A DNA stretch of 64,000 nucleotides, taken from NCBI RefSeq assembly GCF_044704955.1, contig NC_091992.1, positions 63,674,001 through 63,738,000 of the forward strand, given 5' to 3'. The stretch's first letter is position 1. Each line of letters begins with the position of its first letter. The translations under genes were made by a program, and so were the position numbers. Shown piece after piece: positions 530-60,500 of this stretch. The stretch comes from Pristiophorus japonicus. Its lineage: Eukaryota. A model generated the notes under the pieces. The model ran no database searches, was not told where the DNA came from, and saw only the letters and a list, made by a program, of their open reading frames with translations.

Positions 530-1340
530 ACATGCATTTATATAGCACCTTTACATCCCAAGGCACTTCACAGGAGTGATTATAAAAGTCACAAGGAGTT
601 ATTAGGATGGATAGGTTTCCAGACGCTTGGTTTTAAGCAGCATCTTAACAGGAGGAGAGGAAGTGAGAGGGAAAGGCTAGGGATGGAATTCCAGAGCTTC
701 AAGCCTAGGCTGCTGAAGGCACGGTCGACAATAGTGGAATGATTAAAATCGTGGATGCCCAAGAGGCCAAAATTGGAGGAATGCAGATAGGGTGAGGCCA
801 TGGAGGGACTTGAAAATAAGGATGAGAATTTTTGAATCGAGGCATCACTTAACTGGAGCCAATTATAGGCAGCAAGCACAGGGATGATGGGTGAACGGAA
901 TTTGGTGTGAGCTAGGATACAGGAGGATGAGCGTAAGTTTATGCAGGGTGGCAGATGGGAGGCCAGACAGGAGCGCATTGAAATAGTCAAGTCTAGAGGC
1001 AATAAAGACGCGGACAAGGATTTCAGCAGCAGATGAGCTGAGGGAGGGGCGGAGTCAGGCGATGTTAGAGGTGGAAATTGGCAGCCTTCGTGATGGTATG
1101 GATGTGTGGTCGAAAGCTCATCTTAAGATCAAATATGACACCAAAGTTACGAACAGTCTGGTTCAGCCTCACGTAGTTGCCAAGAGAGGGATGGAATTTG
1201 TCGCAGTGACTTGAGAATGGCTACAAGTCTTCCCAATATTTAGTTGGAGGATATTTCTGCTCATCCAGAACCGGATGTCAGACAAGCAGTCTGACAATTT
1301 AGAGACTGTGGAGGCATTGAGAGATGGTGAGGTAGAGCTG
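530..1340 (-). mobile_element. L2-clade LINE 3' fragment in C1QBP intron 3
   Basis: minus ORF 589..1017 ([26 protein letters not shown]) is typical of the L2 ORF2 C-terminus; homologous to 38930-40250. Confidence 0.8.
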
Positions 1341-1811
1341 GCGGAAACCTAATTGGAGGGATCACGGATTTGGGAGGTGACAACATGCTCAAGGACTCCG
1401 GAGGAATGGGAGGTTGGAGTTCCATCATAATTGCAACCCGCTCCACACTAAACTCCACACCCATTCCCTGAATCTATTCCCTTTAAGGTCTGCTCATGTG
1501 CAACTTAATGGTGCACAATCTCAGTGTGCTACTTCAGCTCAGCTTCAAACTCCACACCCAGCCAGTTACCAAGACTTTCACCATTAAAAAATTACCAACC
1601 TCAGCCTTGTAGGGAAAGTGGTTGTAAAACAGGTGTTTAAAATATCCTGCTGCATTCTGTCCAGCCCTGGCTCCCTATCCACAGTCGCATTCAACGATCA
1701 CCCCTCCCTCACTGAGGACGAACAAAACGCAGCAAGTGCTTTCGCTCAACTGCCCGCTGACTATACCAATGTGACGTACTTGTAGTGCCATGTGAGGTCA
1801 ATCCATCTCAC

Positions 1812-1899
1812 CTCATTCTCTGCACCCTTCTGTCCTTCCTGCGGTTCTTCCTCCATTGTTGGCGGAATACTGTTGTTGATATTAAAGGAGACTGTGACC
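1812..1899 (-). CDS. C1QBP: C1QBP (p32/gC1qR, MAM33 family) exon 3; later exons lie beyond the window start
   Basis: (K)VTVSFNINNSIPPTMEEEPQEGQKGAENE; tttgtag acceptor, gtgag donor; phase continues from exon 2. Confidence 0.93.
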
Positions 1900-2329
1900 C
1901 TACAAACAGGAAGATGTGAATGGTCATCACCATCATGAACAAACAACGAGGAACACTGAACCTCACAGAGCAGGAACGTGACAAAGAGGACACTCCGATC
2001 ACAGACTGCCTTGAGTGATAAGTTCATTTAAAAACTAGGGCTGGGAGTACATCACTCACATTCAAGAGCAGGATGAAGCGCTACTCCAAAGCAGCATGGA
2101 ATAAAATCAGAATACTGGCACTGTGTAGACTGACTGCAAATATAACGTTCTGATCATTTCCAATGTTCAGCATTGTAATCTAAGTTTGATACTGAAAGTT
2201 TTACAGAATATATTTCAAAACTTTTCCAAAATTAAAATGGGATTTCTTTTCAATTTACAGTTAAGTACATATTTGTTCTATAGTCAATTCTTTTAGCACG
2301 GAGGTAACGCAATGCAGGATTAAGTAGTT

Positions 2330-2690
2330 GGCTCAGTGGGATGCACTCGCGTCTCTGAATCAGGTGGTCATGGATTATAAGTCTTACTCCAGGGATCTGT
2401 ACACAAAACCTAGGCCAACATCTCAGTGCATACGGAGGGGGTGCTGCACTGTCGGAGATGCTGTCTTTTGGACGGGACGTTAAACATGTTCAGGTGGATG
2501 TAAAAGATCCCACGGCACTATTCGAAGAGGAGCAGGGAAGTTCTCTTTGCCCTGTCCAAAATGTCTCTTAATCAACATCACTAAAACAGGCGAGCTGGAT
2601 GTCTCTCTCACTGCTGCCTGAAGACCTTACTGTGCACAAAGGGACTGCAATATTTATAAAGATTTCCATTGGCTGTGAAACACGATGCTG
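2330..2690 (+). mobile_element. tRNA-headed Deu-domain SINE (SacSINE1-like)
   Basis: ggctcagtgg A-box-like head, then gtcttttggacgggacgttaaac...caggtggatgtaaaagatcccacggcactattcgaaga core; further copies near 27160, 27740, 54130 and 63590. Confidence 0.75.
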
Positions 2691-2955
2691 TATCTATCTA
2701 AGTAGTCGACTCCTTTTGTGTTTTTGAATCAAATAATTTGAAATTAGTGACTGAATTAGCAGTAAACGGTGTCGCACAATCCAGAAGTGCCACAATAAAA
2801 GACTTCAAACCTACATTAGTTCATACAGGCAATATTCTCGGAGCGATTACTAAACCACACACCTTCCCAAGGCGCTTGGGAGGAAGAGGAATGGAACAGA
2901 CCCAGGGGAATCAACACTGAATAGCAGCACTGGGAAACAGAGACACTTAACTTAC

Positions 2956-3106
2956 TTTTCACCACCAACTTTTCGTACAAGTTTAGCTTCAGTCCCATTC
3001 AGCCCAATCTCCCAACCTCCCGACATCTTTGGCAGCATCGAACTTTTCTGGATTTTCTTCTCTTCTTTGATTTCATCTGTGAGAAATTCTGCAAATGCTT
3101 TATCAC
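2956..3106 (-). CDS. C1QBP: C1QBP exon 2
   Basis: GDKAFAEFLTDEIKEEKKIQKSSMLPKMSGGWEIGLNGTEAKLVRKVGGEK matches the C1QBP mature N-terminus; ctgcag acceptor, gtaag donor; 151 nt. Confidence 0.96.
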
Positions 3107-3369
3107 CTGCAGAGTGAATGAAGAACTGGTTAAAACTAAACACTGTGCCATGACCATGTTCCACAAGTGTAAACACAGAGCCCCTGCTGACTTCACTGTT
3201 AAATGCACAGCACAGTACTCCGTCACAAACAAAGCCGGCCGCAGATTTGATCCACAGCCTGGTCAGCCAGAATAATTAGGTTAAGGGGGTGGGGGGGGAG
3301 AGAGAGTGGGGGGAGGGGGAGGGAACGAGAGGGTGTGTGTGGGGAGTTTTGCGGCCGGCCTCGGCTTAC

Positions 3370-3595
3370 CCTCGGTGTGAAGCGCCCCGCAGCCGCACGA
3401 CAGGCCGTTGAGGGGCCGGCTAGAGCCGAGCGGCCCTCGCCCTGGGCCGGAGCTGCAGAGAAGCCACATGGAGCGGGCCAGGCCGCGGATCCCGGAGCTG
3501 CCGCTGGCGCCGGCCGGCTGCAGGAGAGGCAGCGGGGCAGCCCGGGAGCCGAGGCGGCCGGCTGAGCACAGGAGTCGGGGCAGCACTCTGAGCAT
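3370..3595 (-). CDS. C1QBP: C1QBP exon 1 coding part (mitochondrial targeting presequence)
   Basis: gccgccATG Kozak context; MLRVLPRLL...SCGCGALHTEG ending in a gtaag donor; Arg/Leu/Ser-rich presequence and conserved CGCGxLHTEG. Confidence 0.93.
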
Positions 3596-3945
3596 GGCGG
3601 CCCGACCTCTGAACACAACGTGGAGAGCGCGAACCGAAACCGGAACCGGAACCCCCGGCCCAAAGCCTTCGCCAATCGGCAGCAGCACAGGGCACCGGCG
3701 CCTGGCCAGCCAATCAGCTGGGTGACTGAGGCACCAATCAGCGGACGGGCTGAAGGCACCAATCCGGGGCTGCGTTGAAAGCACCAATCAAGGGCCGCGA
3801 TGAAGGCACCAATCGGGGGCCGGGCTGAAGGCATCAATCAGAGGCCAGGCTGAAGGCACCAATCCGGGGCCGGGCTGAAGGTACCAATCCGGGGCCGGGC
3901 TGAAAGCACCAATCAGAGGCCAGGCTAAAGGGACCAATCGGGGCT
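3596..3945 (-). promoter_or_regulatory. C1QBP CpG-island promoter with tandem CCAAT-box array
   Basis: about 11 CCAAT-like boxes, nine at ~25-bp period (ggctgaaggcaCCAATcnggggcc); ccggaa ETS-type motifs at ~3640-3651. Confidence 0.75.
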
Positions 3946-3974
3946 CGCCATCTCACTGCGATCCATCAGCGCCT

Positions 3975-4075
3975 AATGTTGCAACTCTCCGCGGGTCAGG
4001 CAGCATCTGTGGAGAGAAACAGAGTTAACGTTTCGGGTCGGTGACCCTTGGTCAGAACTGGAAAGGTTGGAGACC
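3975..4075 (-). mobile_element. Penelope-like element terminal repeat fragment with degenerate minimal hammerhead motif
   Basis: same motif (gggtcaggcagcatctgtggagagaaacagagttaacgtttc) recurs at ~4340, ~52100 and ~56270; a GIY-YIG remnant lies nearby. Confidence 0.6.
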
Positions 4076-4169
4076 CAGTGCAGGGGAGAGGGGAGAGAGA
4101 GTGGGAAAGAGCAAGGCAGGAGAGACAGAGCCTGCAAAGGGATATGGATAGGTTCAGTGAGTGAGTGGG

Positions 4170-4820
4170 TGGAGTATCATGTGGGGAAATGTGAGGTTAT
4201 TCACTTTGATAGAAAGAATAAAAAAACAGAATATTTTAAATGGTGAGAAACTATTAAATGTTGGTGTTCAGAGAGATTTGGGTCCTCCTACAGGAAACAC
4301 AGAAAGATAGCATGCAGATACAGCAACCAATTAGGAAGATGAAGGGTCGTCGACCAGAAACGCTAACTCTTTTTCTCTCTGCAAATGCTGAGTTTTTCCA
4401 GAATTTTCTGTTTTTATTTCAGATTCCAGCATCCGCAGTATTTTGCTTTTGAATTTGGAAGACAGTCGGCCTTTATTGCAAGGGGTTTGGAGTACAAGAG
4501 TAAGGAAGTCTTGCTACAATTGTACAGAGATTTGGTGAGCCCACACCTGGAGCCGGCCATTTAAGACTGAGATGATGAATAATTTCTTCACTCGGAGGGC
4601 AGTGAAACTTTGGAATCCTCTATCTCAAAGGGCCTTGGATGCTGAATCGTTGAGTATGTTGAAGACTGACATTGATAGATTTTTGGCCTCTAGGGGAATC
4701 AAGGGATATGGGGATCAGGCAGGAAATTGGAGTTGAGGTCGAAGATCAGCCATGATCTTACTGAATGGTGGAGCAGGCTCGAAGGTCTACTCCTGATCCT
4801 AATTCTGATGCTCTTATGTT
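4170..4820 (+). mobile_element. fragmented CR1 3' region interrupted by a Penelope repeat fragment
   Basis: gagtgggtggagtatcatgtggggaaatgtgaggttattcac...cagccatgatcttactgaatggtggagcaggctcgaagg tail. Confidence 0.75.
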
Positions 4821-5400
4821 CTTAAATGATAAAAGGTCTGATAGTACAAAGCAAAAGGAGATGGTAATGCGACAAGTAAAGAAACAAAAGAATGGTCTAG
4901 TGGACGTGTAAATGGCAATATCAGAATCCTCAACAGCTGCCATTTGAAAAAATAGGGGCAGAGATTATGGTCTGAAATTTTTGAGTCCAGAGGCTATAAA
5001 GTGCCTAAACAAAAGATGAGGTGCTGTTCCTCGAGCTTATGTTGCACTTCGTTGGAACAGTGCAAGAGGCTGAGGACAGATTGGGAGTGGAGCGGAGAAT
5101 TAAATTGACAGGTGACTGGAAGCCCGGGGACTGAACAGAGGTGTTCCACAAAACAGTCACCCAATCTACATTTGATCTCTCCAATGTAGAGGAGACCACA
5201 TCATGAGCAAAGAATACAGTATACTAAATTGAAGGAAGTACAATTAAATTGCTGTTTCACCTGGAAGGAGTGTTTGGGGCCCTGGACAGTGGGAATGGAG
5301 GAGATAAAAGGGCAGGTGTTGCATCTCCTGCGCTTACACAGGAAGGTGCCATGGAGAGGGGAGGGGGTATTGTGGGTGATTGAGGAGTGGATCAGAGCAG
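4820..5400 (-). mobile_element. Penelope-like element, GIY-YIG endonuclease remnant
   Basis: minus strand ~5135-5205 translates CGLLYIGEIKCRLGDCFVEHL, the YIG...RL..RF.EH signature of PLE endonucleases. Confidence 0.8.
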
Positions 5401-6152: not shown

Positions 6153-9100
6153 AGGAAGATGCCGAGGGGGTAAGTGATTGGTGATTGGTGAGTAGTTTTT
6201 CTTTTTTCTCTTCTATATCAGTGAGTAACTTTTAACATTGTTGTTGCCAATTTAAGTGTATCTAAGGGTTAAGTCATGGCAGGAGAGCTCGGACACGTGT
6301 TATGTTCCTCCTGTACTATGTGGGAAATCAGGTGTCCCTGACGACTACGTGTGCGGGAAGTGTATCCGCCTCCAGCTCCTGACGGACCACGTTGCGGAAT
6401 TGGAGTTGAAGGTCGATTCACTCTGGAGCATCCACGATGCTGAGAATGACATGAATAGCACGTTTAGTGAGGTGGCCACACCGCAGGTAAAGGGTACACA
6501 GCCAGATAGGGAATGGAAGACCAACAGGAAGAGCAGTGCAAGGAAGGTAGTGCAGGGATCCTCTGCTGTCATCCCCCTGCCAAACAGATACACCGCTTTG
6601 AGTGCTGTTGAGGGGGATGACTCATCAGGGGGGAGCAGCAGCAGCCAAGTTCATGGCACCGTGGCTGGCTCTGCTGCACTGGAGGGCAGGAAAAAGAGTG
6701 GCAGAGCGATAGTGATAGGGGATTCAATTGTAAGGGGAATAGACAGGCGTTTCTGCGGCCGCAACCGAGACTCCAGGATGGTATGTTGCCTCCCTGGTGC
6801 AAGGGTCAAGGATGTCTCGGAGTGGGTGCAGGACATTCTGAAAAGGGAGGGTGAATAGCCAGTTGTCGTGGTGCACATTGGTACCAACAATATAGGTAGA
6901 AAACGGGATGAGGTCCTACGAGATGAATTTAAGGAGCTAGGAGCTAAATTAAAAAGTAGGACCTCAAAAGTAGTAATCTCAGGATTGCTACCAGTGCCAC
7001 GTGCTAGTCAGAGTAGGAATCGCAGGATAGCTCAGATGAATACGTGGTTTGAGCAGCAGGGAGGGATTCAAATTCCTGGGGTATTGGAACTGGTTCTGGG
7101 GGAGGTGGGACCTGTACAAACTGGACGGGCTGCACCTAGGCAGGACTGGAATCAATGTCCTAGGAGGAGTATTTGCTAATGCTGTTGGGGAGGAGTTAAA
7201 CTAATATGGCAGGGGGATGGGAACCAATGCAGGGAGACAGAGGGAAACAAAATGGAGACAGAAGCAAAAGACAGAAAGGAAATGAGTAAAAGTGTAGGAC
7301 AGAGAAACCCAAGGCAAAAAACAAAAAGGGCCACTTTGCAGAAACAGGGTCTAAGTGTGTTAAAAAGGCGACTGAAGGCTCTGTGCCTCAATGCGAGGAG
7401 TATTCAGAATAAGGTGGACGAATTAACTGTGCAGATAACAGTTAACGAATACGATGTGGTTGGCATCACGGAGACATGGCTCCAGGGTGACCAAGGCTGG
7501 GAACTCAACATCCAAGGGTATTCAACATTTAGGAAGGATAGACGGAAAGGAAAAGGAGGCGGGGCGGCATTGCTGGTGAAAGAGGAAATTAATGCAATTG
7601 TAAGGAGGGACATTAGCCTGGATAATGTGGAATCGGTCTGGGTGGAGCTACGGAATACCAAGGGGCAGAAAATGCAAGTGGGAGTTGTGTACAGTCCTCC
7701 AAACAGTAGTAGTGATGTTGGGGAGGGCATCAGACAGGAAATTAGGGGTGCATGCAATAAAGGTGCAGCAGTTATATTGGGTGTCTTTAATATGCATATA
7801 GATTGGGCTAATCAAACTGGAAGCAATACGGTGGAGGAGGATTTCCTGGAGTGCATGAGGGATGGTTTTCTAGACCAATATGTCGAGGAACCGACGAGGA
7901 GGGAGGCCATCTTAGACTGGGTGTTGTGTAATGAGAGAGGATTAATTAGCAATCTCGTTGTGCGAGGCCCCTTGGGGAAGAGTGACCATAATATGGTGGA
8001 ATTCTACATTAGGATGGAGAATGAAACGGTTAATTCAGAGACCATGGTCCAGAACTTAAAGAAGGGTAACTTTGAAGGTATGAGGCTTGAATTGGCTAGG
8101 ATAGATTGGCGAATGATACTTAAGGGGTTGACAGTGGATGGGCAATGGCAGACATTTAGAGACTGCATGGATGAACTACAACAATCGTACATCCCTGTCT
8201 GGCGTAAAAATAAAAAAGGGATGGTGGCTCAACCGTGGCTATCAAGGGAAATCAGGGATAGTATTGAAGCCAAGGAAGTGGCATACAAATTGGCCAGAAA
8301 TAGCAGCAAACCCGGGGACTGGGAGAAATTTAGAACTCAGCAGAGGAGGACAAAGGGTTTGATTAGGGCAGGGAAAATGGAGTACGAGAGGAAGTTTGCA
8401 GGGAACTTTAAAATGGACTGCAAAAGCTTCTATAGATATGTAAAGAGAAAAAGGTTAGTAAAGACAAACGTAGGTCCCCTGCAGTCAGAATCAGGGGAAG
8501 TCATAACTGGGAACAAAGACATGGCAGACCAATTGAACAAGTACTTTGGTTCGGTATTCACTAAGGAGGACACAAACAACCTTCCGGATATAAAAGGGGT
8601 CAGAGGGTCTAGTAAGAAGGCGGAACTGAGGGAAATCCTTATTAGTTGGGAAATTGTGTTGGGGAAATTGATGGGATTGAAGGCCGATAAATCCCCAGGG
8701 CCTGATGGACTGCATCCCAGGGTACTTAAGGAGGTGGCCTTGGAAATAGCGGATGCATTGACAGTCATTTTCCAACATTTCATAGACTCTGAATCAGTTC
8801 CTATGGAGTGGAGGGTAGCCTTTTGTAACCTCACTTTTTAAAAAAGGAGGGAGAGAGAAAACAGGGAATTAAAGACCGGTCAGCCTGACATCGGTAGTGG
8901 GTAAGATGATGGAATCAGTTATTAAGGATATCATAGCAGCGCATTTGGAAAGAGGTGACATGATAGGTCCAAGTCAGCATGGATTTGTGAAAGCGAAATC
9001 ATGCTTGACAAATCTTCTGGAATTTTTTGAGGATGTTTCCAGTAGAGTGGACAAGGGAGAACCAGTTGATGTGGTGTATTTGGACTTCCAGAAGGCTTTC

Positions 9101-10249
9101 GACAAGGTCCCACACAAGAGATTAGTGTGCAAAGTTAAAGCACATGTGATTGGGGGTAGTGTGCTGATGTGGATTGAGAACTGGTTGGCAGACAGGAAGC
9201 AAAGAGTAGGAGTAAATGGGTACTTTTCAGAATGGCAGGCAGTGACTAGTGGGGTACCGCAAGGTTCTGTGCTGGGGCCCCAGCTGTTTATATTGTACAT
9301 TAATGATTTAGACGAGGGGATTAAATGTAGTATATCCAAATTTGCGGATGACACTAAGTTGGGTGGCAGTGTGAGCTGCGAGGAGGATGCTATGAGGCTG
9401 CAGAGTGACTTGGATAGGTTAGGTGAGTGGGGAAATGCACGGCAGATGAAGTATAATGTGGATAAAACAGAGACAGACTATTATCTGAATGGTGACAGAT
9501 AAGGAAAAGTGGAGGTGCAATGAGACCTGGGTGTCATGGTACATCAGCCATTGAAGGTTGGCATGCAGGTGCAGCAGGCTGTTAAGAAAGCAAATGGCAT
9601 GTTGGCCTTCATAGCGAGGGGATTTGAGTACAGGGGCAGGGAGGTGTTACTACAGTTGTACAGGGCCTTGGTGAGGCCACACCTGGAGTATTGTGTACAG
9701 TTTTGGTCTCCTAACTTGAGGAAGGACGTTCTTGCTATTGAGGGAGTGCAGCGAAGGTTCACCGACTGATTCCCGGGATGGCGGGACTGACATATCAAGA
9801 AAGACTGGATCAACTGGGCTTGTATTCACTGGTGTTCAGAAGAATGAGAGGGGATCTCATAGAAACGTTTAAAATTCTGACGGGGTTAGACAGGTTAGAT
9901 GCAGGAAGAATGTTCCCAATGTTGGGGAAGTCCAGAACCAGGGGTCACAGTCTAAGGATAAGAGGTAAGCCATTTAGGACCGAGATGAGGAGAAACTTCT
10001 TCACCCAGAGAGTGGTGAACCTGTGGAATTCTCTACCACAGAAAGTTGTTGAGGCCAATTCACTAAATATATTCAAAAAGGAATTAGATGTACTCCTTAC
10101 TACTAGGGGGATCAAGGGGTATGGTGAGAAAGCAGGAATGGGGTACTGAAGTTGCATGTTCAACCATGAACTCATTGAATGGCGGTGCAGGCTCGAAGGG
10201 CCAAATGGCCTACTCCTGCACCTATTTTCCATGTTTCTATGTTTCTATG
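6153..10249 (+). mobile_element. near full-length CR1 LINE (ORF1 zinc finger plus SGNH esterase; ORF2 APE-RT), disrupted
   Basis: ORF1 CSSC..CGKC, IVIGDSIVRG, VHIGTN, DGLHL; ORF2 LNARS, GITETW, SDHN, YLDFQKAFDKV, QGSVLGP, FADD; (TTCTATGT) tail; frameshifts and stops present. Confidence 0.95.
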
Positions 10250-10524: not shown

Positions 10525-12370
10525 ATAGAAACATAGAAAATAGGTGCAGGAGCAGGCCCTTCAGCCCTTCGAGCCTGCACCACCATTCAATAAGATCATG
10601 GCTGATCATTCCCTCAGTACCCCTTTCCTGCTTTCTCTCCATACCTCTTGATCCCTTTAGCCGTAAGGGCCAAATCTAACTCCCTCTTGAATATATCCAA
10701 TGAACTGGCATCAATGACTCTCTGCGGCAGGGAATTCCACAGGTTAACAACTCTCTGAGTGAAGAAGTTGTCCTCATCTCAGTCCTTAAGTTTAGGACTC
10801 TTGTTTCTGAATTAACTGTGTCACTCTCAATCTTAATAAAGAATTCTACCATATTATGGTCACTCTTCCCCAAGGGGCCTCGCACAAAAAGATTGCTAAT
10901 TAGTCCCTTCTCATTACACATCACCCAGTCTAGGATGGCCAGCTCTCTCGTCGGTTCCTCCACATATTGGTCAAGAAAACCATCCCAAATACACTGCAGG
11001 AAATCCTCCTCTACCGCATTGCTACCAGTTTGGTTAACCCAATCTATATGTAAATTAAAGTCACCCATGATAACTGCTGTACCTTTATTGCAAACATCCC
11101 TTATTTCTTGTTTTATGCTTTCCCCAACCTCACTACTACTGTTTGGTGGCCTGTACACAACTTCCACCAGCGTTTTATGCCCTTTGGTATTCCGCAGCTC
11201 CACCCATACCGATTCCACATCATCCAAGCCAATGTCCTTCCTTACTATTGCATTAATTTCTTCTTTAACCAGCATCGCCACCCCGCCTCCTTTTCCTCTC
11301 CGCCTATCCTTCCTAAATGCTGAATACCCCTGGATGTTGAGTTCCCAGCCTTGGTCACCCTGGAGCCATGTCTCTGTGATGCCAATTACATCATATCCAT
11401 TAACAGCTATCTGCGTAGTTAATTCGTCCACCTTATTCCGAATACTCCTCGCATTGAGGCACAGAGCCTTCAGGCTTGTCCCTTTAACACCCCTTTAGAA
11501 TTTTGCTGTAATGTGGCCCTTTCTGTTTTTTGCCTTGGGATTCTCCTTTCTATCTTTTGCCTCTGTCTCCCTTTTATTTCCCTCTGCCTCCCTGCATAGG
11601 TTCCCATCCCCCTGCCATATTAGTTTAACTCCTCCCCAACAGCACTAGCAAACACTCCCCCTAGGACATTGGCTCCAGTCCTGCCCAGGTGTAGACCGTC
11701 CAGTTTATACAGGTCCCTACTCCCCCAGAACCGGTTCCAATGCCCCAGGAATTTGAATCGCTCCCTTCTGCACCACTCCTCAAGCCACGTATTCATCTGA
11801 GCTATCCTGCGATTCCTACTCTGACTAGCACGTGGCACTGGTAGCAATCCTGAGATTACTACTTTTGAGGTCCTACTTTTTAATTTAGCTCCTAGCTCCC
11901 TAAATTCGTCTCGTAGGACCTCATCCCGTTTTTTACCTGTATCGTTGGTACCTATGTGTACCACGACAACTGGCTGTTCACCCTCCCTTTTCAGAATGTC
12001 CTGTACCCACTCCGAGACATCCTTGACCCTTGCACCAGGGAGGCAACATACCATCCTGGAGTCTCGGTTGCGGCCGCAGAAACGCCTGTCTATTCCCCTT
12101 ACAATTGAATCCCCTATCACTATCGCTCTGCTACTCTTTTTCCTGTCCTCCTGTGCAGCAGAGCCACCCATGGTGCCATGAACTTGGCTGCTGCTGCCCT
12201 CCCCTGATGAGTCATCCCCCCCAACAGTACTCAAAGCGGTGTATCTGTTCTGCAGGGGGATGACCGCAGGGGACCCCTGCACTACCTTCCTTACACTGCT
12301 CTTCCTGCTGGTCACCCATTTACTAGCTGGCTGAATACCCTTTACCTGCGGTGTGACCAACTCGGTAAAC
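10525..12370 (-). mobile_element. internally deleted CR1 (ORF1 3' half and APE joined directly to the 3' tail)
   Basis: ORF 11620..12417 is the esterase; ORF 10676..11431 is APE and jumps at ~10785 to the RTEMRR.. 3' end, so RT is missing. Confidence 0.9.
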
Positions 12371-15947: not shown

Positions 15948-16351
15948 TAACCAGTTCTCTATCCACATCAGTACTTAACCTCCAATACCATGTGCTTTGA
16001 TTTTGCACACCAATCTCTTGTGTGGGACCTTGTCAAAAGCCTTTTGAAAGTCCAAATACACCACATCCACTGGTTCTCCTTTGTCCACTCTGCTAGTTAC
16101 ATCCTCAAAAAACTCCAGAAGACTTGTCAAGCATGATGTCCCTTTCACAAACCCATGCTGACTTGGACCGATCTTGTTCCAACTGTCACAGGAGCATCCA
16201 GTCGTGCCCCGGTAACTGCCCCCAAAGGAAGTGGAGTATGGGAAATTGCACTCCACTTCCATTGAGGGGTGGTAAGGCCAATTCTGCGGCAGGAGCAGGA
16301 CTTCCACGCTGGGGGCTAAAATTCCCTACCCCAGAAGGTTACCGGCCCCAA

Positions 16352-17060
16352 GATGGGAGCCTGTGCGAGGAGGCAGAGGGAAGTTGAGAGGAGACGGGGG
16401 CGGGGGATGGAGGGGAGAGTGGTGGAAGTGGAGGGGGCGCAGAAACCCAGGGCGGGGAGCAGGAGGGGCCACATTGCAGCTAACGTCTCGGGGGGCGAAG
16501 TGTGTTGGAGGGGCGGGCCTGGGGGCTCTGTGCCTCGTTGCGGGGAGTGTTTAGAGTGGAGTGGACGGGTTGACTGCGCAGATGGCGGTTGGTGGATGTG
16601 GTGTGGTTGGCGTCGCGGGGGCGTGGCTCCGGGGTGGCCTGGGCTGGGGGCTTGACATCCGGGGGTGTTCGGCATTTGGGAAGGATTCTGATGGGACGGG
16701 GCGGGTTGGGTGCGGGGGGGGAGTGTTCCCGGTGATGGGTGGGTCTGGAGCATGTGGGGGGGAGGCACGCTCTTGGGATGGGGCGTGGGCTGTTTGGGGC
16801 TGGGATTGGGAGAGACTTCTTCACTCGGGGAGTTGTTGGCCTGTGGGGATCCCTGCCGCGGAGAGTTGTTGATGACAGTTCATTGGATGTGTTCGGGAGG
16901 GAGTTGGATATGGTCCTTGCGGCTGGGGAGGTCGGGGGGTTTGGAGGGGGCGGAGGGGGGAGGTGCTGGGGTGGGTGTTCAGCCATGATCTTCTTGAATG
17001 GCGGTGCAGGCTCGAAGGGCCGAATGGCCTACTCCTGCACTTATTTTCTATGTTTCTATG
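16352..17060 (+). mobile_element. A-to-G hypermutated, internally deleted CR1 retrocopy
   Basis: aligns without gaps to the neighbouring CR1 (11311-11480 reverse complement) with most A replaced by G; 3' tail unmodified. Confidence 0.9.
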
Positions 17061-17676
17061 TCACTGCTTTCCAAATGCGCTGCTATTTCATCCTTAATGA
17101 TTGATTCCAACATTTTCCCCACTATTGATGTCAGGCTAACCGGTCTATAATTACCCGTTTTCTCTCCCTTCTTTTTTTAAAAAGTGGTGTTATATTAGCT
17201 ACCCTCCAGTCCATAGGAACTGATCCAGACTGTTGGAAAATGATCACCAATTCATCCACTATTTCTACGGCCACTTCCTTAAGTACTCTAGGATGCAGAC
17301 TATCAGGCCTCGGGGATTTATCGGCCTTCAATGCCATCAATTTCCCTAACACAATTTCCCGCCTAATAAGGATATCCTTTAGTTCCTCCTTCTCACTAGA
17401 CCCTTGATCCCCGAGTACCTCCAGAAGGTTATTTGTGTCTTCCTTCGTGAAGACAGAACCAAAGTATTTGTTCAATTCACATATCTATAGAAGCTTTTGC
17501 AGTCAGTTTTTATGTTCCCGGCAAGCTTTCTCTCGTACTCTATTTTCCCCCTCTTAATTAAACCTTTTGTCCTCCTCTGCTGAATTCTAAATTTCTCCCA
17601 GTCGTCAGGTTTGCTGCTTTTTCTAGCCAATTTATATGCCTCTTCCTTGGATTTAACACTATCTCTAATTTCCCTT

Positions 17677-21667: not shown

Positions 21668-24397
21668 AATGGTGGGGCTTTGGAGGCGTGGCCTAATCAG
21701 TTGGAGCCTGGCTGCTGAGAGAGAAGGAGCTACCTGCTTTGCTCCTGTCTAGAGGGCCTGGAGTGAGCCCTGAGAACAGCCCAGGAATAGGAGGAGAGGG
21801 CCAGGCTTACTACAACTCAACCTCTGGAGGGAGAGGTGGAGAGCTGAACAATTATCATTTATTACAACTACAGAGAGTTGGAGAGAGGGGGAAAGAACAA
21901 CCTGAGGAAACACCATCCAGTGTGGAAGGAGGGAGAGTCATTTCCACATCTTCGACAGGTGGGTGTGTTTTGGTGCATTCCCCAATAGACTTTGTGGTAT
22001 CGGTGGGGGGAGGAAAGAAAATAACTTGAGGGCCGGAACATCGCGGGGGTTGTGTGTGTGTGGAAGTGTGTGTGGGGGTCTTGCTTACAGCTAGGCCCCA
22101 CACACCACTGAAGCGCCCCTCCCCCATTGCCTAGCCTGGGATAGCTGGAGCTACCTGGATGAAGAATCTTTAATCACCCTTTAAACATCGTTGGGAGTGT
22201 GTGCCTGGGTGGCTCCAGCTACCCCAGGTGAAGATATCTTCTCCCCCCATCCGAAGACCACTCTACAAAGACTGTGTTTTTTTGCCATCTGGGGAGTGCA
22301 CCCCAAGAAACACCCACCCACCGTTGTGAGGGGAGACCTGCCCTCGCAGCTTCCCTCCTTCCCAACCCCTCACTCTATCTCTCTCTCTCTGTCTCTCCCC
22401 TCTCTCTCTGAGAGCCCTTTGCTCCTAATTTCTTTAAAAAAAAAGAAAACAATCAAGACAACTGAGCAGAGGGAGCAAGGCCCCTCCCCAATTGCCAACT
22501 AGGGGAGAAGTGTGCCTCTTTCAGAGCTCCTCTGCTCAAACATTCAAACGAGGCCAATTTAAGACCATTAAGGCCTGTGACTTTGGGGTGGGTGTAGCCC
22601 TTAAAGGGACCCCGTGATGGCGACCCCATCCACGCCGGTGGCAGGGCCAGCTAAGACTTATGCGCAGGCGGCATCCACATCCACGGCGCCTCCTGCGCCT
22701 CCTGCTGCCCTGCCACCATTCAGACTAATTACCAAGAAACACGGGGTCAAGAGCTACACTCACCCCACAATGAGCATTGAGGAGTGCGTGCGGGCGATGG
22801 CTGGGGTAGTCGGCCCGTCGGCCATTGTCGCAGCCTCCAAGATGTCTGGGAAGGCTGTATTCTTCCTGGGGTCGGAGCGAGCGGTGTCCCTGGCCATTGA
22901 AAAGGGGCTCACGGTGGGCGGGGCGTTCCTGCCGGTGGACCCTCTCAAGGCCACCGCGCAGAAGGTCATTCTATCGAACGTCCCGCCCTTTGTTCCCGCT
23001 GAGCTCCTCCTCCCTCACCTACACCAACTGGGAGAGGTAAGGTCGGGGATCAACCCCATACCGCTCGGCCTCAGGGAGAACAGCCTGCACCATGTGTTCT
23101 CCTTCCGCCGCCAGCTCTTTGTCGGGCTGGCGCGGGAGGAGACAACAGAGGGCAATTTTAATGTGGTGCACGAGGGGACTGCCTACCGCGTCTGCTGGAC
23201 GTCGGACGGCGTGCGGTGCCATGCCTGCAGGGAGGTGGGGCACGTTCGCAAGCCAAACCACCAAAGGCGGCCAAGGCTGGCGCTGCTGCCACCCCTCCCC
23301 CTAGTTGCGTCCGCGTGCCGGGAGCCGTAGGTGCGCGGGCATCGTCGGAGGCCTTTGTTTTCACGGCATCCGGCGGGGGGGAGGGAGAGCGTCTGACCGG
23401 AAAGAAGGCGCGGAAGAAGACGATCCATCTAGAGGCGGGTCCCCTCGGTGCGCCAGACAATCTGTTTACCGCGCTCGGCCCAACCCCGTCACCGGCGAGC
23501 GCGGGGTGCCCTGAGCCCGTGCCCGAGCCCTTGACCAATATCGCAGAGGGGCTCGGGCGCGGGCAAGAAAAGAAAAAGGGGTGGGTGGAGCGGGAGGCCT
23601 CGGCAGACATGGAGGTCTCCCTGCCTCCGTGCACCCCCAGGAACAAAAGGAGGCGCCGCTCCAATGAGGCGGAGGGGGAACAACATCCCTCCGCGGAGGA
23701 GTCGGTGCCCGCCGCGTGTCCCGCGTCCCCCACCTGCGCCCCCAAATTGCGCTGTAGGCGCGAGGAATCTGTCCCCGGGGAGGGTGAGACAGTCGAGGCT
23801 GTCCAGCCTCTGCCCCCCGGGGATGGCGTGGAAGATCTGCCTGTCATGGGGGGTGTGGGGCAGGCGGAGGAATGCATTGCCGCCGGGCCGAGCGTCCCGG
23901 GGACTGAGGCGGGCGGGGCCGAAAAGCCCGAACCTGAGCACGCCCAGCTATTAACCAACTTCCCCTGGGAGTCGCTTGACCCGGCAGAAACCGAAATTAT
24001 GAATAATTTTAAAGATTCTGTACACGCTGGGCCAGGGGGTGGCGGCGGGGAGGGGGAAGAACAACAACCCTCGCCCCCTACTTTGGAGCTGGGGTACTTG
24101 GTGGACCTGGAACATTACTTTGACCAGGTCTCTCCGTGTTCCCCGGTTCCTGGGCCGGAGGAGGAACCCCTTCTGCTGTCGCTTCCCGACCCAGCACCAA
24201 TTTTAAAAGAGCGCAGTGGGGACTCCTCTGCCGACGATCCTGGGGGTGGGATTGGGGCAGAGCCAGGGCCAGATGGAGCGGCCGGGCCGTTTGCCGTACA
24301 TCGTGCGGTCGACAGGCCGGCTGCTGGCGGCGACCTCCCGGAGGAGGACGGGGACTCGGTGGAGGACGCGGGTGAAGATCTCGAGTCCATCGCCAGT
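21668..24397 (+). mobile_element. second Tx1-clade element: 5'UTR and ORF1 (ATG 22617), 3' part missing
   Basis: KTYAQAA, KHGVK, SIEECVRAMAGVVGPSAIVAASKM, KVILSNVPPF, SFRRQ, zinc knuckle CHACREVGH (frameshifted) and acidic/Pro-rich tail typical of Tx1 ORF1. Confidence 0.88.
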
Positions 24398-26458
24398 GCT
24401 GCGTTTTACAATGCCCTACGCGGTGTCTGAGGTTTTCGTTGTTTTGCAAGTTATTTTTTTACGTTTTCGTGTTTTTTCCAAAGTTTCTCATGTTGCCTAT
24501 GGGTTATGCTGCATTTTACAATGATCTACGCTGTTTGAGTTTTTCGTTGTTTTTTGAGTTATTTTTTTTCTTTTTGGAGTTTTTCGAAGTTTCTAATGGT
24601 GCATATGGGTGGTGCTGCGTTTTACAATGACCGGCGCTGTTTCTGCGGTTTTCGTTGTTTTTCGAGTTATTTTTCTTTTTTCAGTTTTTGGATGCTTCTC
24701 ATGGTGCATATTGGTGTGCTGCATTTCAAACGGCCCTACGCTTTTTCTGATGTTTTTGTTGTTTTTCGAGTTATCTTTTTACTTTTGAGTTTTTAAAAGT
24801 TTCTCATGGTGTATATGGGTTGTGCTGCGTTTCACACTGCCCTACACTGTTTGAGGTTTTCGTTGTTTTGCGAGTTATTTCAAAACCTTTCTGTTGTTTT
24901 TCGCAGTTTCTCTTGGTGCATATGGATTCTGCGGAGTTTTGCAACGAGGTTGTTTGAGGATTTCATTGTTTTCTGTTATTTTTTTAGTTTATTTGTGTCT
25001 TTTGAAGTATCTCATGGTGTATATGGGTTCTGCTGCGTTTTACACTGCACTATGCTGTATCTGAGGTTTTCGTTGTTTTTCGAGTTTTTTAAAAACGTTT
25101 TTGAGTTTTTCGAGCTTTGTCATGGTGCCTATGAGTTGTGCTGCATTATTACAATGCCCTACACTGTTTCTGATGTTTTCCGAGTTTTTAAATTATGTTT
25201 TTGAGTTTTTCGAACTTTGTCATGGTGCCTATGGGTTGTGCTGCATTTTACAATGCACTACGCTGTTTCTGATGTTTTCGTTGTTTTTCGAGTTTTTTTT
25301 TGAGTTTTTTGAAGTTTCTCATGGTGCCTATCGGTTGTGCTGCGTTTCACACCGCCCTACGCTATTTCTGAGGTTTTCGTTGTTTTGCGAGTTATTTCAA
25401 AACCTTTTTGTTTTTCGTAATTTCTCGGTGCATATGGATTCTGCTGAGTTTTACAATGAACTACACTGTTTCTGAGGTTTTCGTTTTTCGTTATTTTTTA
25501 ATTTTTAAAAAAGTTTTTGAAGTTTCTCATGGTGTATATGGGTTGTTCTGCGTTTCGAATTGCCCTTCGCTGTTTCTCAGGTTTTTGTTGTTTTTCCAGT
25601 TATTTTTTTTCGTTTTGAGTTTTTCAAAGTTTCTCATGTAGTATATGTGTTGTGTTGCATTTTACAATGCCCTACGCTGTTTCTGATGTTTTCGTTGTTT
25701 TTCGAGTTTTTAAATGTTTTTTTGAGTTTTTTGAAGTTTCTCATGGTGCCTATCGGTTGTGCTGCGTTTCACACTGCCCTACGCTATTTCTGAGGTTTTC
25801 GTTGTTTTGCGAGTTATTTCAAAACCTTTTTGTTTTTCGCAATTTCTCTTGGTGCATATGAATTCTGCTGAGTTTTACAATGATCTGCGCTGTTTCTGAG
25901 GTTTTCGTTGTTTTGCGAGTTATTTCAAAACCTTTCTGTTGTTTTTCGCAGTTTCTCTTGGTGCATATGGATTCTGCGGAGTTTTGCAACGAGGTTTGAG
26001 GTTTTCATTGTTTTCTGTTATTTTTTTTAGTTTTTTTGTGTCTTTTGAAGTATCTCATGGTGTATATGGATTCTGCTGCGTTTTACACTGCACTATGCTG
26101 TATCTGAGGTTTTCGTTGTTTTTCGAGTTTTTTTTAAACGTTTTTGAGTTTTTCGAACTTTGTCATGGTGCCTATGGGTTGTGCTGCATTATTACAATGC
26201 CCTACACTGTTTCTGATGTTTTCCGAGTTTTTAAATTATGTTTTTGAGTTTTTTGAACTTTGTCATGGTGCCTATGGGTTGTGCTGCATTTTACAATGCC
26301 CTACGCTGTTTCTGATGTTTTCGTTGTGTTTCGAGTTTTTAAATGTTTTTTTGAGTTTTTTGAAGTTTCTCATGGTGCCTATCGGTTGTGCTGCGTTTCA
26401 CACTGCCCTACGCTATTTCTGAGGTTTTCGTTGTTTTGCGAGTTATTTCAAAACCTTC
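24398..26458. repeat. satellite array, ~20 monomers of ~105 bp
   Basis: recurring gctgc(a/g)ttttacaatgccctacgctgtttctga..ttttcgttgtttttcgagt..ctcatggtg; very T-rich on plus strand; HOR ~1045 bp. Confidence 0.95.
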
Positions 26459-53358: not shown

Positions 53359-53707
53359 CGCCTCAGTGCGGAGCTGTGTCCCTGTCTGTGTCCCTGTCCC
53401 TGTCCCTGTCCCTGTCCCGGTCCCGGTCCCGGTCCGTCCCCCGGCGGCGGCTGCCTGGAGCCGGAGCTCAGCCACCAATCGGCGTCATTCCCCGCTCCCA
53501 GCAACCTACACTTGCGCACTAGCGCCTGGGCGCATGCGGACTAAGTTGCGGGCGGGTGCGTGTTGTGCGCAAGCGCGCTGCCCGGCCCCCCCTACTGGCT
53601 GGCGGTTATAGTGACGCGCTGGGCGGGTTGTGCGCAGGCGCGCTGGCCGGCCCCCCACTGGCTGGCGGGTATAGTGACGCGTTGCGGGCCGGGCCAGGCG
53701 GTTGAAG
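53359..53707. promoter_or_regulatory. RPAIN/NUP88 bidirectional CpG-island promoter
   Basis: ATGs are 350 bp apart on opposite strands; NRF1-type GCGCAnGCG motifs at ~53530, 53566 and 53631; GC boxes; duplicated ~63-bp unit. Confidence 0.8.
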
Positions 53708-60149: not shown

Positions 60150-60500
60150 GGGGGGAGTGGGGTCAGGGAGTTTTGAGTCTCAGGAAGTGGCAGTGACTTG
60201 GGGATGGCAGTGGTGGGGGGAGGGGGGAAGGGAGGGAGAGAGAGTGGGGTCAGGTAGTGACTGGGAGAGCGGGGTCAGAGAGTGACTGGGGGATGGCAGT
60301 GGGGTCAGTGAGTGACTGGGGGAGCAGGGTCAGTGAGTGACTGGGGGATGGGGAGCAGGGTCAGTGAGTGACTGGGGGATGGCAGTGGGGTTAGTGAGTG
60401 ACTGGGGGAGCAGGGTCAGTGAGTGACTGGGGGATGGCAGTGGGGTCAGGGAGTGACTGGGGGAGCGGGGTCAGTGAGTGACTGGGGGATGGCAGCAGTG
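60150..60500. repeat. G-rich minisatellite (gggtcagtgagtgactggggg + atggcagtg/agca)
   Basis: about 10 tandem variants of 26-31 bp. Confidence 0.9.

Follow-up and report, generated by a model that had tools for sequence, protein, structure and literature searches.

A CR1-derived retroposon family in Pristiophorus japonicus, probably founded by an ADAR hyper-edited RNA

Within the 64,000-nt stretch of the Pristiophorus japonicus genome analysed here (the ‘window’), we find one 5'-truncated, plus-strand copy of a dispersed, non-autonomous CR1-derived retroposon family, the body of which differs from ordinary CR1 almost exclusively by A>G changes on the sense strand. We put at roughly 85% the probability that the family was founded by germline ADAR hyper-editing of one CR1 RNA, which was then reverse-transcribed by CR1; we infer the enzyme, its RNA substrate and the germline timing, and name ADAR because the spectrum of changes, their 5' context, their strand and their recurrence all fit. 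The first-pass annotation of this DNA had placed a hyper-edited CR1 at 16352-16978, but the actual unit runs from 16176 to 17061 and consists of two CR1 pieces, joined at 16682-16686 (Table 1). It had also taken the window copy's own RNA to be the one that was edited; instead the edits were inherited, since the family has over 1,000 copies and 142 edited sites, and the window copy carries G at 130 of these.

Table 1. The edited element, its parts and its surroundings in the window.
Feature	Position	Strand	Basis
Family copy, 5'-truncated	16176..17061	+	Matches to other loci, exact junction matches
Last part-unit of 37-bp VNTR and unique head	16176..16351	+	Common to family copies
A>G-hypermutated CR1 segment: just after ORF1, and start of ORF2 endonuclease	16352..16686	+	Alignment to CR1 majority
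Deletion junction, 5-nt microhomology	16682..16686	+	Two CR1 pieces meet, ~2.4 kb of ORF2 including RT missing
A>G-hypermutated CR1 ORF2 end and 3' region	16687..16975	+	59 A>G in 3' segment alignment
Essentially unedited CR1 3' end: predicted stem-loops and short TTCTATGT-type repeat tail	16976..17061	+	1/17 A changed
Host: one half of interrupted antisense CR1	15949..16175	-	Self-BLAST to 8958-9186
Host: other half of interrupted antisense CR1	17062..17675	-	Self-BLAST to 8244-8961
Unedited CR1 relative, reference of the first-pass annotation, not the parent	11290..11620	-	Sequence comparison

An aligner that tolerates transitions without favouring either direction placed the two pieces such that 16350-16686 aligns to CR1 after ORF1 and at the start of ORF2, and 16682-17062 to the CR1 3' end. 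Four of the five nucleotides of microhomology at the junction are present in the unedited parents, and the edits of the window copy begin at 16359, with the last body edit mapping to 16975. Unedited relatives in the window carry an ORF1 matching PF13472 (Lipase_GDSL_2; 2e-13) and an ORF2 matching PF03372 (Exo_endo_phos; 1.6e-13) and PF00078 (RT; 5.2e-35); the parent layout is thus an SGNH/GDSL esterase in ORF1 with an APE endonuclease and reverse transcriptase in ORF2, which we take to be that of the CR1 clade. As it is the unedited relatives that carry these domains, A is read as the ancestral state. The element itself is not an autonomous CR1, having lost around 2.4 kb of ORF2 and retaining no intact copy of that frame; its edited frame gave no Pfam match, a weak test for the short piece present. 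Its 3' end is shared with the partner LINE, 84 of 86 tail positions being the CR1 majority letter, and folds at -26.8 kcal/mol (z -2.0, 7 of 200 shuffles folding as well); this segment likely acts as the signal for the CR1 reverse transcriptase. At the insertion site within the antisense CR1 there is a 3-nt overlap and no clear target-site duplication, the host junction matches the CR1 majority, and empty-site joints of the host antisense CR1 are seen in contigs.

Several other features of the window deserve mention in their own right. The reference CR1 copy (10676-11494, minus strand) is internally deleted, its endonuclease region joining the CR1 3' end near 10785, and is unedited. The segment 12077-16662, a 4.6-kb nested CR1 block together with the first part of the edited element, resembles positions 591-5208 of locus L063 on another chromosome (G000:C4, about 274.45 Mb) at 96.5%, and is either a segmental duplication or a larger mobilised unit. 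T-rich sequence repeats in tandem roughly every 105 nt across 24396-26457, and short tandem repeats lie within GC-rich stretches at 3729-3943, 53558-53700 and 60243-60492.

An exact search with a 21-mer across the deletion junction gave 1,041 matches in the genome, and no control matches. Searching the animal's own genome (5.9 Gb) returned the window and at least 39 other places (all 40 of the 40 places scored), the others matching almost all of the 627 nt at 92-93%; against the extended window unit, each of the 29 other top loci aligns at 90-93% over 717-902 nt, mostly from 16176 through to the tail. In loci picked by other parts of the element the junction was found in 19 of 29, 16 of 27 and 12 of 15; the family comprises roughly 1,300-1,800 junction-bearing copies, a figure that is a floor, since the samples of loci lean towards well-kept copies. 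These units are dispersed and multi-copy, with a fixed 3' end and variable 5' truncation, as befits a non-autonomous, LINE-dependent retroposon. A search for target-site duplications found repeats of at least 7 nt flanking the insertion in 7 of 61 copies (against 3.7% of shuffled pairs), mostly not at clean edges. Outside CpG, copies diverge from the family majority by 2.4%, and their decay is mostly at CpG. Two groups of near-identical copies with common flanks (L005, L006, L010 and L012 on G000:C22, 37.12-37.19 Mb; L018 and L019 on C8) lie in local duplications. A normal G-rich subfamily had been put forward in the first-pass annotation as grounds for dropping the editing reading; more than 1,000 copies do form a family, but this moves the editing event to the founder and does not remove it.

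To derive the spectrum of changes, the family majority was taken from an alignment of 80 copies (10 duplicate or paralogous loci, and loci covering 500 nt or less, having been removed beforehand) and compared with CR1 majorities built from as many as 29 and 28 unedited loci. Across the body there are 141 A>G changes, 63 kept A and 14 other substitutions, with no T>C and just three G>A, a pattern confined to A>G on one strand; about 69-70% of body adenines are changed, and the 5' and 3' segment alignments contribute 88 and 59 changes respectively. Over the last 86 nt, by comparison, the family majority has a single A>G among 17 A. The rate of change depends upon the 5' neighbour, with T at 30/30, A at 54/67, C at 29/42 and G at 28/65 (chi2 p 2.6e-8), the same order being seen in both CR1 segments; the rate for C is lowered, because CA>CG edits decay back through CpG loss. 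This order matches the in vitro preference of human ADAR1 and ADAR2, given as U>A>C>G (PMC3113232). The same source gives an in vitro 3'-neighbour order of G>C~A>U; the 3'-neighbour effect in the family is not significant (p 0.36). Relative to the CR1 column-majority, the window copy itself shows 131 A>G, 67 kept A and 35 other substitutions. Aligned copies carry G at a median of 96.5% of edited sites (minimum 77%, in a degraded copy, among the 80), and because the edits are shared to this extent they must predate amplification and point to a single founder.

Much of what had been seen by hand in the first-pass annotation withstands this analysis. The comparison of 16512-16681 with the reverse complement of 11311-11480 is indeed gap-free, the 51 reference adenines being read as G at 38 positions, as T at two and kept at 11, with seven differences other than A>G; all 10 adenines preceded by T are changed, and those kept follow G (six), C (three) or A (two). 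That A>G extends throughout the stretch is correct for 16350-16700 (76 A>G against 4 G>A, relative to the CR1 copy at 6400-8100) and for the 3' part (57-71 A>G against 4-5 G>A, relative to five CR1 copies), but not for the essentially unedited last 86 nt. The proposed ADAR-type spectrum and 5'-neighbour order emerge again when CR1 majorities replace the single relative, and the predicted gain of CpG- and G-run-rich DNA is evident in the composition of the body, in which A falls from 34% to 11%, CpG dinucleotides rise from 9 to 37 and G4-like motifs from 0 to 4.

Upstream of the body lies a 175-nt head, itself preceded by a VNTR with units of 37-38 bp that extends for anything from nothing to 29.9 kb and is cut at variable points. 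The head retains its TA steps and contains a hairpin (fold z -2.45); it has no Rfam match at the gathering score and no match outside the family among the loci compared, and tRNA scans of four loci found none in any, so that the tRNA, 5S or 7SL-type Pol III head of a strict SINE is not seen. The head and the part of the VNTR at 16176..16351 are likely 5' flank carried over from a source locus. Following 18 copies upstream (17 with 0.8-5.3 kb of VNTR, and one with the 29.9-kb array) revealed no sequence common to them beyond the VNTR that might represent a 5' end, a source locus or a promoter. The copy with the 29.9-kb array (L069, L204-L206; G000:C4:158337332-158367214; at least 762 VNTR units) was considered as the source and rejected, as its 5' edge falls within a VNTR unit and the copy has itself been inserted; the array is possibly a secondary source locus, or one that grew after insertion. 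Read by eye, this copy seems to have inserted into a Gypsy-like gag, close behind an LTR-like sequence.

Newer, mutually different A>G clusters occur in the 5'-most VNTR units of three family copies. They do not define a subfamily with an edited VNTR, there being just three matches with differing patterns, and none of 1,569 VNTR units in 20 long-array stretches has three or more edits. Searches for an unedited precursor gave only edited members: the deletion junction written in CR1 letters had two matches, both ordinary edited copies, and a head-CR1 motif had 16, of which the 15 examined were all edited. Locus L034, which had looked like the head joined to unedited CR1, is actually a paralog of the window locus with a separate CR1 lying behind it.

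Editing of CR1 is not restricted to this founder. We searched outside the family with a 30-nt motif from the RT region in which all four TA steps were required to read TG, taking as denominator the same motif with A or G allowed at every A, and obtained 16 sense-edited matches among 122,705 motif-bearing CR1 copies. In 14 of the 16 there are tracts that pass an identity filter, spanning about 130-1,150 nt and mostly lying beside unedited CR1; the other two (L164 and L165) have short tracts seen by eye and were left out of the pooled context, from which the search motif itself was also excluded. Pooled over the 14 single copies, the 5'-neighbour rates are T 0.75, A 0.71, C 0.47 and G 0.34, and by 3' neighbour G is highest (0.61) and C lowest, where the in vitro order is G>C~A>U. 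Pairwise agreement at non-TA sites is low (median 0.62 over 82 pairs) and the 3' flanks are unshared, with similarity in one pair only among the 16, at 73% and offset, which argues that these are separate events. As a rough inference, dividing 16/122,705 by 0.75^4 suggests that about 1 in 2,500 CR1 copies is edited at the motif site. The edited CR1 copy L167 has 183 of 265 sites changed in a single insertion, and L168 and L176 inserted with 7/17 and 8/17 of their tail adenines changed; since these two have an edited 3' end, a strict need for an unedited tail is argued against. A preference of the reverse transcriptase for stopping at edited tracts is not supported (8/16 against 15/42, p 0.38). 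We also observed that in L175 the 3' part of an edited CR1 is followed by an inverted CR1 3' end, without a normal tail.

The mirror-control motif gave one match, L177 (G000:C5:221125386-221128415), in which an antisense piece of the CR1 RT region, hyper-edited at 58 of 77 sites (TA 17/17), is joined to a sense 3' end and tail that are unedited. Because its edits are collinear with its own tail, L177 too was edited on the copied strand, and it could record a switch of the reverse transcriptase onto the antisense partner of a duplex. All told, 17 of 17 edited tracts lie on the tail-collinear strand (p 1.5e-5), in agreement with the earlier expectation that the bias would follow the strand of the copied RNA. 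Strand alone, however, does not separate RNA editing from mutagenesis at the copying step: were skewed dNTP pools to make the CR1 reverse transcriptase place C opposite A, or were second-strand DNA attacked by an adenine deaminase, the product would likewise be tail-collinear A>G that stops at the insertion edges, and hypermutagenesis by reverse transcriptases under biased dNTPs does exist. What speaks against non-ADAR mutagenesis of this kind, which we consider improbable, is that the ADAR neighbour order is present in three sets, namely the family, the 14 single copies and L177 (T 17/17, with a small G class at 5/8), and that the tracts are patchy and sharp-edged, with unedited CR1 in the same insertion, as would be anticipated for duplex-limited editing.

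The densities reached in single insertions also bear on the idea that G accumulated gradually over successive master elements, through a ratchet of mild editing or biased mutation. Some columns are polymorphic, with A in 35/80 and G in 44/80 copies at one site and a gain of G in 12/78 at another, at three columns a minority of copies still has the CR1 letter, and the newer edits in the VNTR indicate RNA that is still being edited, all of which might be expected of such a ratchet. Yet no intermediate copy is found among the 80 aligned, nor among 15 more picked for one unedited site (with A at 2-9 of ~140 sites); L167 and L177 equal the density of the family in single insertions; and later A>G changes among copies (1.1%) fall below G>A (1.8%). 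We therefore regard gradual enrichment as very unlikely.

Hypermutation of DNA in place after insertion, whether of the TpA type known from Bigelowiella or by R-loop editing, and followed by spread, is largely refuted, and we give it little credence. TA is the most changed context, and TpA hypermutation of integrated DNA has been described in that alga (bioRxiv 10.64898/2026.01.13.699255); a process confined to TpA would nonetheless leave other contexts alone, and in the family most A preceded by A or C, and 28 of 65 preceded by G, are changed. There is no sense-strand T>C, and every one of the 17 tracts follows the RNA strand of its element. In the seven copies with their 5' end inside the tract, 62 TA steps are found in the host flanks against 12 inside (p 1.6e-9), and as the flanks keep their TA steps the edits stop at the insertion edges.

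The reality of the family was also assessed in sequence data beyond the assembly. Short-read contigs cover the G-rich body in three of four runs, of which X1 is possibly the source sample, and so not independent, X5 comes from another sample and study, and X7 from another study under a different organism label; one X7 contig reaches across the junction and shows 8 differences within 16490-16751. The run labelled organism C lacks coverage in 10 of 30 bins, which all fall within the head or body, and gaps in its contigs prove nothing. The independent-read check proposed at the outset is thereby answered for the G-rich body, since these contigs confirm the family but not the exact window copy. 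An assembly or long-read consensus artefact, to which a window full of inverted CR1 pairs might be prone, is scarcely credible in the face of 1,041 dispersed exact junction matches with none in the control, a 4.6-kb paralog on another chromosome that shares the edited body at 96.5%, CpG decay among copies at CpGs made by the edits, and contigs from two other samples or studies that carry the body.

Synthesising this evidence, we favour hyper-editing of a single founder RNA and propose the following sequence of events. A CR1 RNA would have paired with an antisense CR1 RNA and been hyper-edited at ~69% of its adenines, except over the last 86 nt; target-primed reverse transcription would have read inosine as G, with ~2.4 kb of ORF2 lost at the microhomology in the same event or earlier. 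The product may then have come to lie downstream of a transcribed 37-bp minisatellite and the unique head, such that read-through RNAs ending in the CR1 3' signal could be mobilised in trans by CR1 to give copies 5'-truncated in the VNTR, head or body. Here the unedited 3' stem-loops would be what lets CR1 move the element; a requirement for the 3' end sequence is assumed for many LINEs (PMC3747384). Inverted CR1 pairs are common in the window by self-BLAST, and exons encoding an A_deamin domain, which may belong to ADAR, ADAD or ADAT genes, are present at six genome loci. Human L1 RNA is reported not to be edited by ADAR1 in cells (PMC5224506). The edited body can still pair with antisense CR1 through G-U (-554 against -615 kcal/mol over 300 nt), and for this reason we treat any advantage of the element in escaping silencing as a hypothesis only.

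Each component of this picture has precedents. ADAR-type provirus cases are known among avian retroviruses. Clusters of ADAR-type A>G changes have been described in the 3' LTR of integrated BLV proviruses (at least 7 changes in ~70 bp, in three proviruses; PMC8025556), and resemble the family in that A-to-I edits were carried through reverse transcription into integrated DNA; they are, however, somatic, small and unamplified, whereas the family has ~141 edits over ~620 nt and is heritable, LINE-derived and present in more than 1,000 copies. Hypermutated retroelement copies with a deaminase context have been documented in vertebrate genomes by Zaranek et al. (PMC2873906), and APOBEC-edited LTR retroelements carry G>A from deamination of C in cDNA, in a screen by Knisbacher and Levanon that dropped A-to-G (PMC4866542). 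Such elements share with the family hypermutated copies fixed in vertebrate genomes; the family differs in being A>G and not G>A, non-LTR, and of ADAR context.

Among composite elements, the bipartite LINEs that lack open reading frames (RTE, Ingi, Vingi and R2, usually with their own LINE 5' end; Kojima 2018, PMC5786205) likewise consist of two pieces joined by an internal deletion, with no coding capacity and the LINE 3' end kept, but the family is derived from CR1, its 5' piece is internal, and it combines a hypermutated body with a VNTR and head of foreign origin. SVA and LAVA (PMC4432496) are also non-autonomous composites that contain tandem repeats of 30-50 bp and rely on a LINE to move them in trans; their sequence is unrelated, and the family has its VNTR at the 5' end without a defined 5' domain having been found, and a CR1 tail in place of poly(A). 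The abstract of that account states no editing origin. With the CR1-tailed SINEs HE1 and HER1 of sharks and rays (PMC3747384) the family has in common a 3' end from a CR1-type LINE, but no tRNA or other Pol III head was found in it. The terms ‘editing’, ‘ADAR’ and ‘non-autonomous’ are absent from the main text of a 2026 CR1 survey (PMC13343379), and the accessible portions of PMC8072771 and PMC8586724 add nothing on genomic LINE copies. Among the papers listed in our literature search, mainly open-access ones, we saw none describing an edited RNA as the founder of a retroposon family, and the family may be catalogued in Repbase or Dfam without this reading. It is the combination that is new: a hyper-edited founder whose family has grown beyond 1,000 copies, together with recurrent, independent edited insertions.

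A further proposal, which we offer tentatively and with the odds against it, is that a host defence against dsRNA here made a new mobile element. With A reduced from 34% to 11%, the targets of ADAR would be mostly removed, antisense pairing weakened and the element disguised from silencing, with its 3' signal intact, and amplification might have followed; ADAR would then mutate LINE insertions in the germline time and again, affecting roughly 1 in 2,500 CR1 copies at one site, and would spread CpG- and G4-rich DNA.

The family is, on the reading preferred here, a heritable DNA record of A-to-I editing in the vertebrate germline, of a kind that screens for G-to-A changes are built to discard, and it suggests that a hyper-edited RNA, beyond leaving a dead copy, can give rise to a new retroposon family. 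It raises the questions of whether ADAR catalysis acts on LINE RNAs that are still able to retrotranspose, where the cell work with human L1 found none, and of whether editing can help a retroposon to escape silencing. For the genome of this shark, the family has meant the spread of more than 1,000 new CpG-rich and G-run-rich blocks genome-wide, each often accompanied by a minisatellite.
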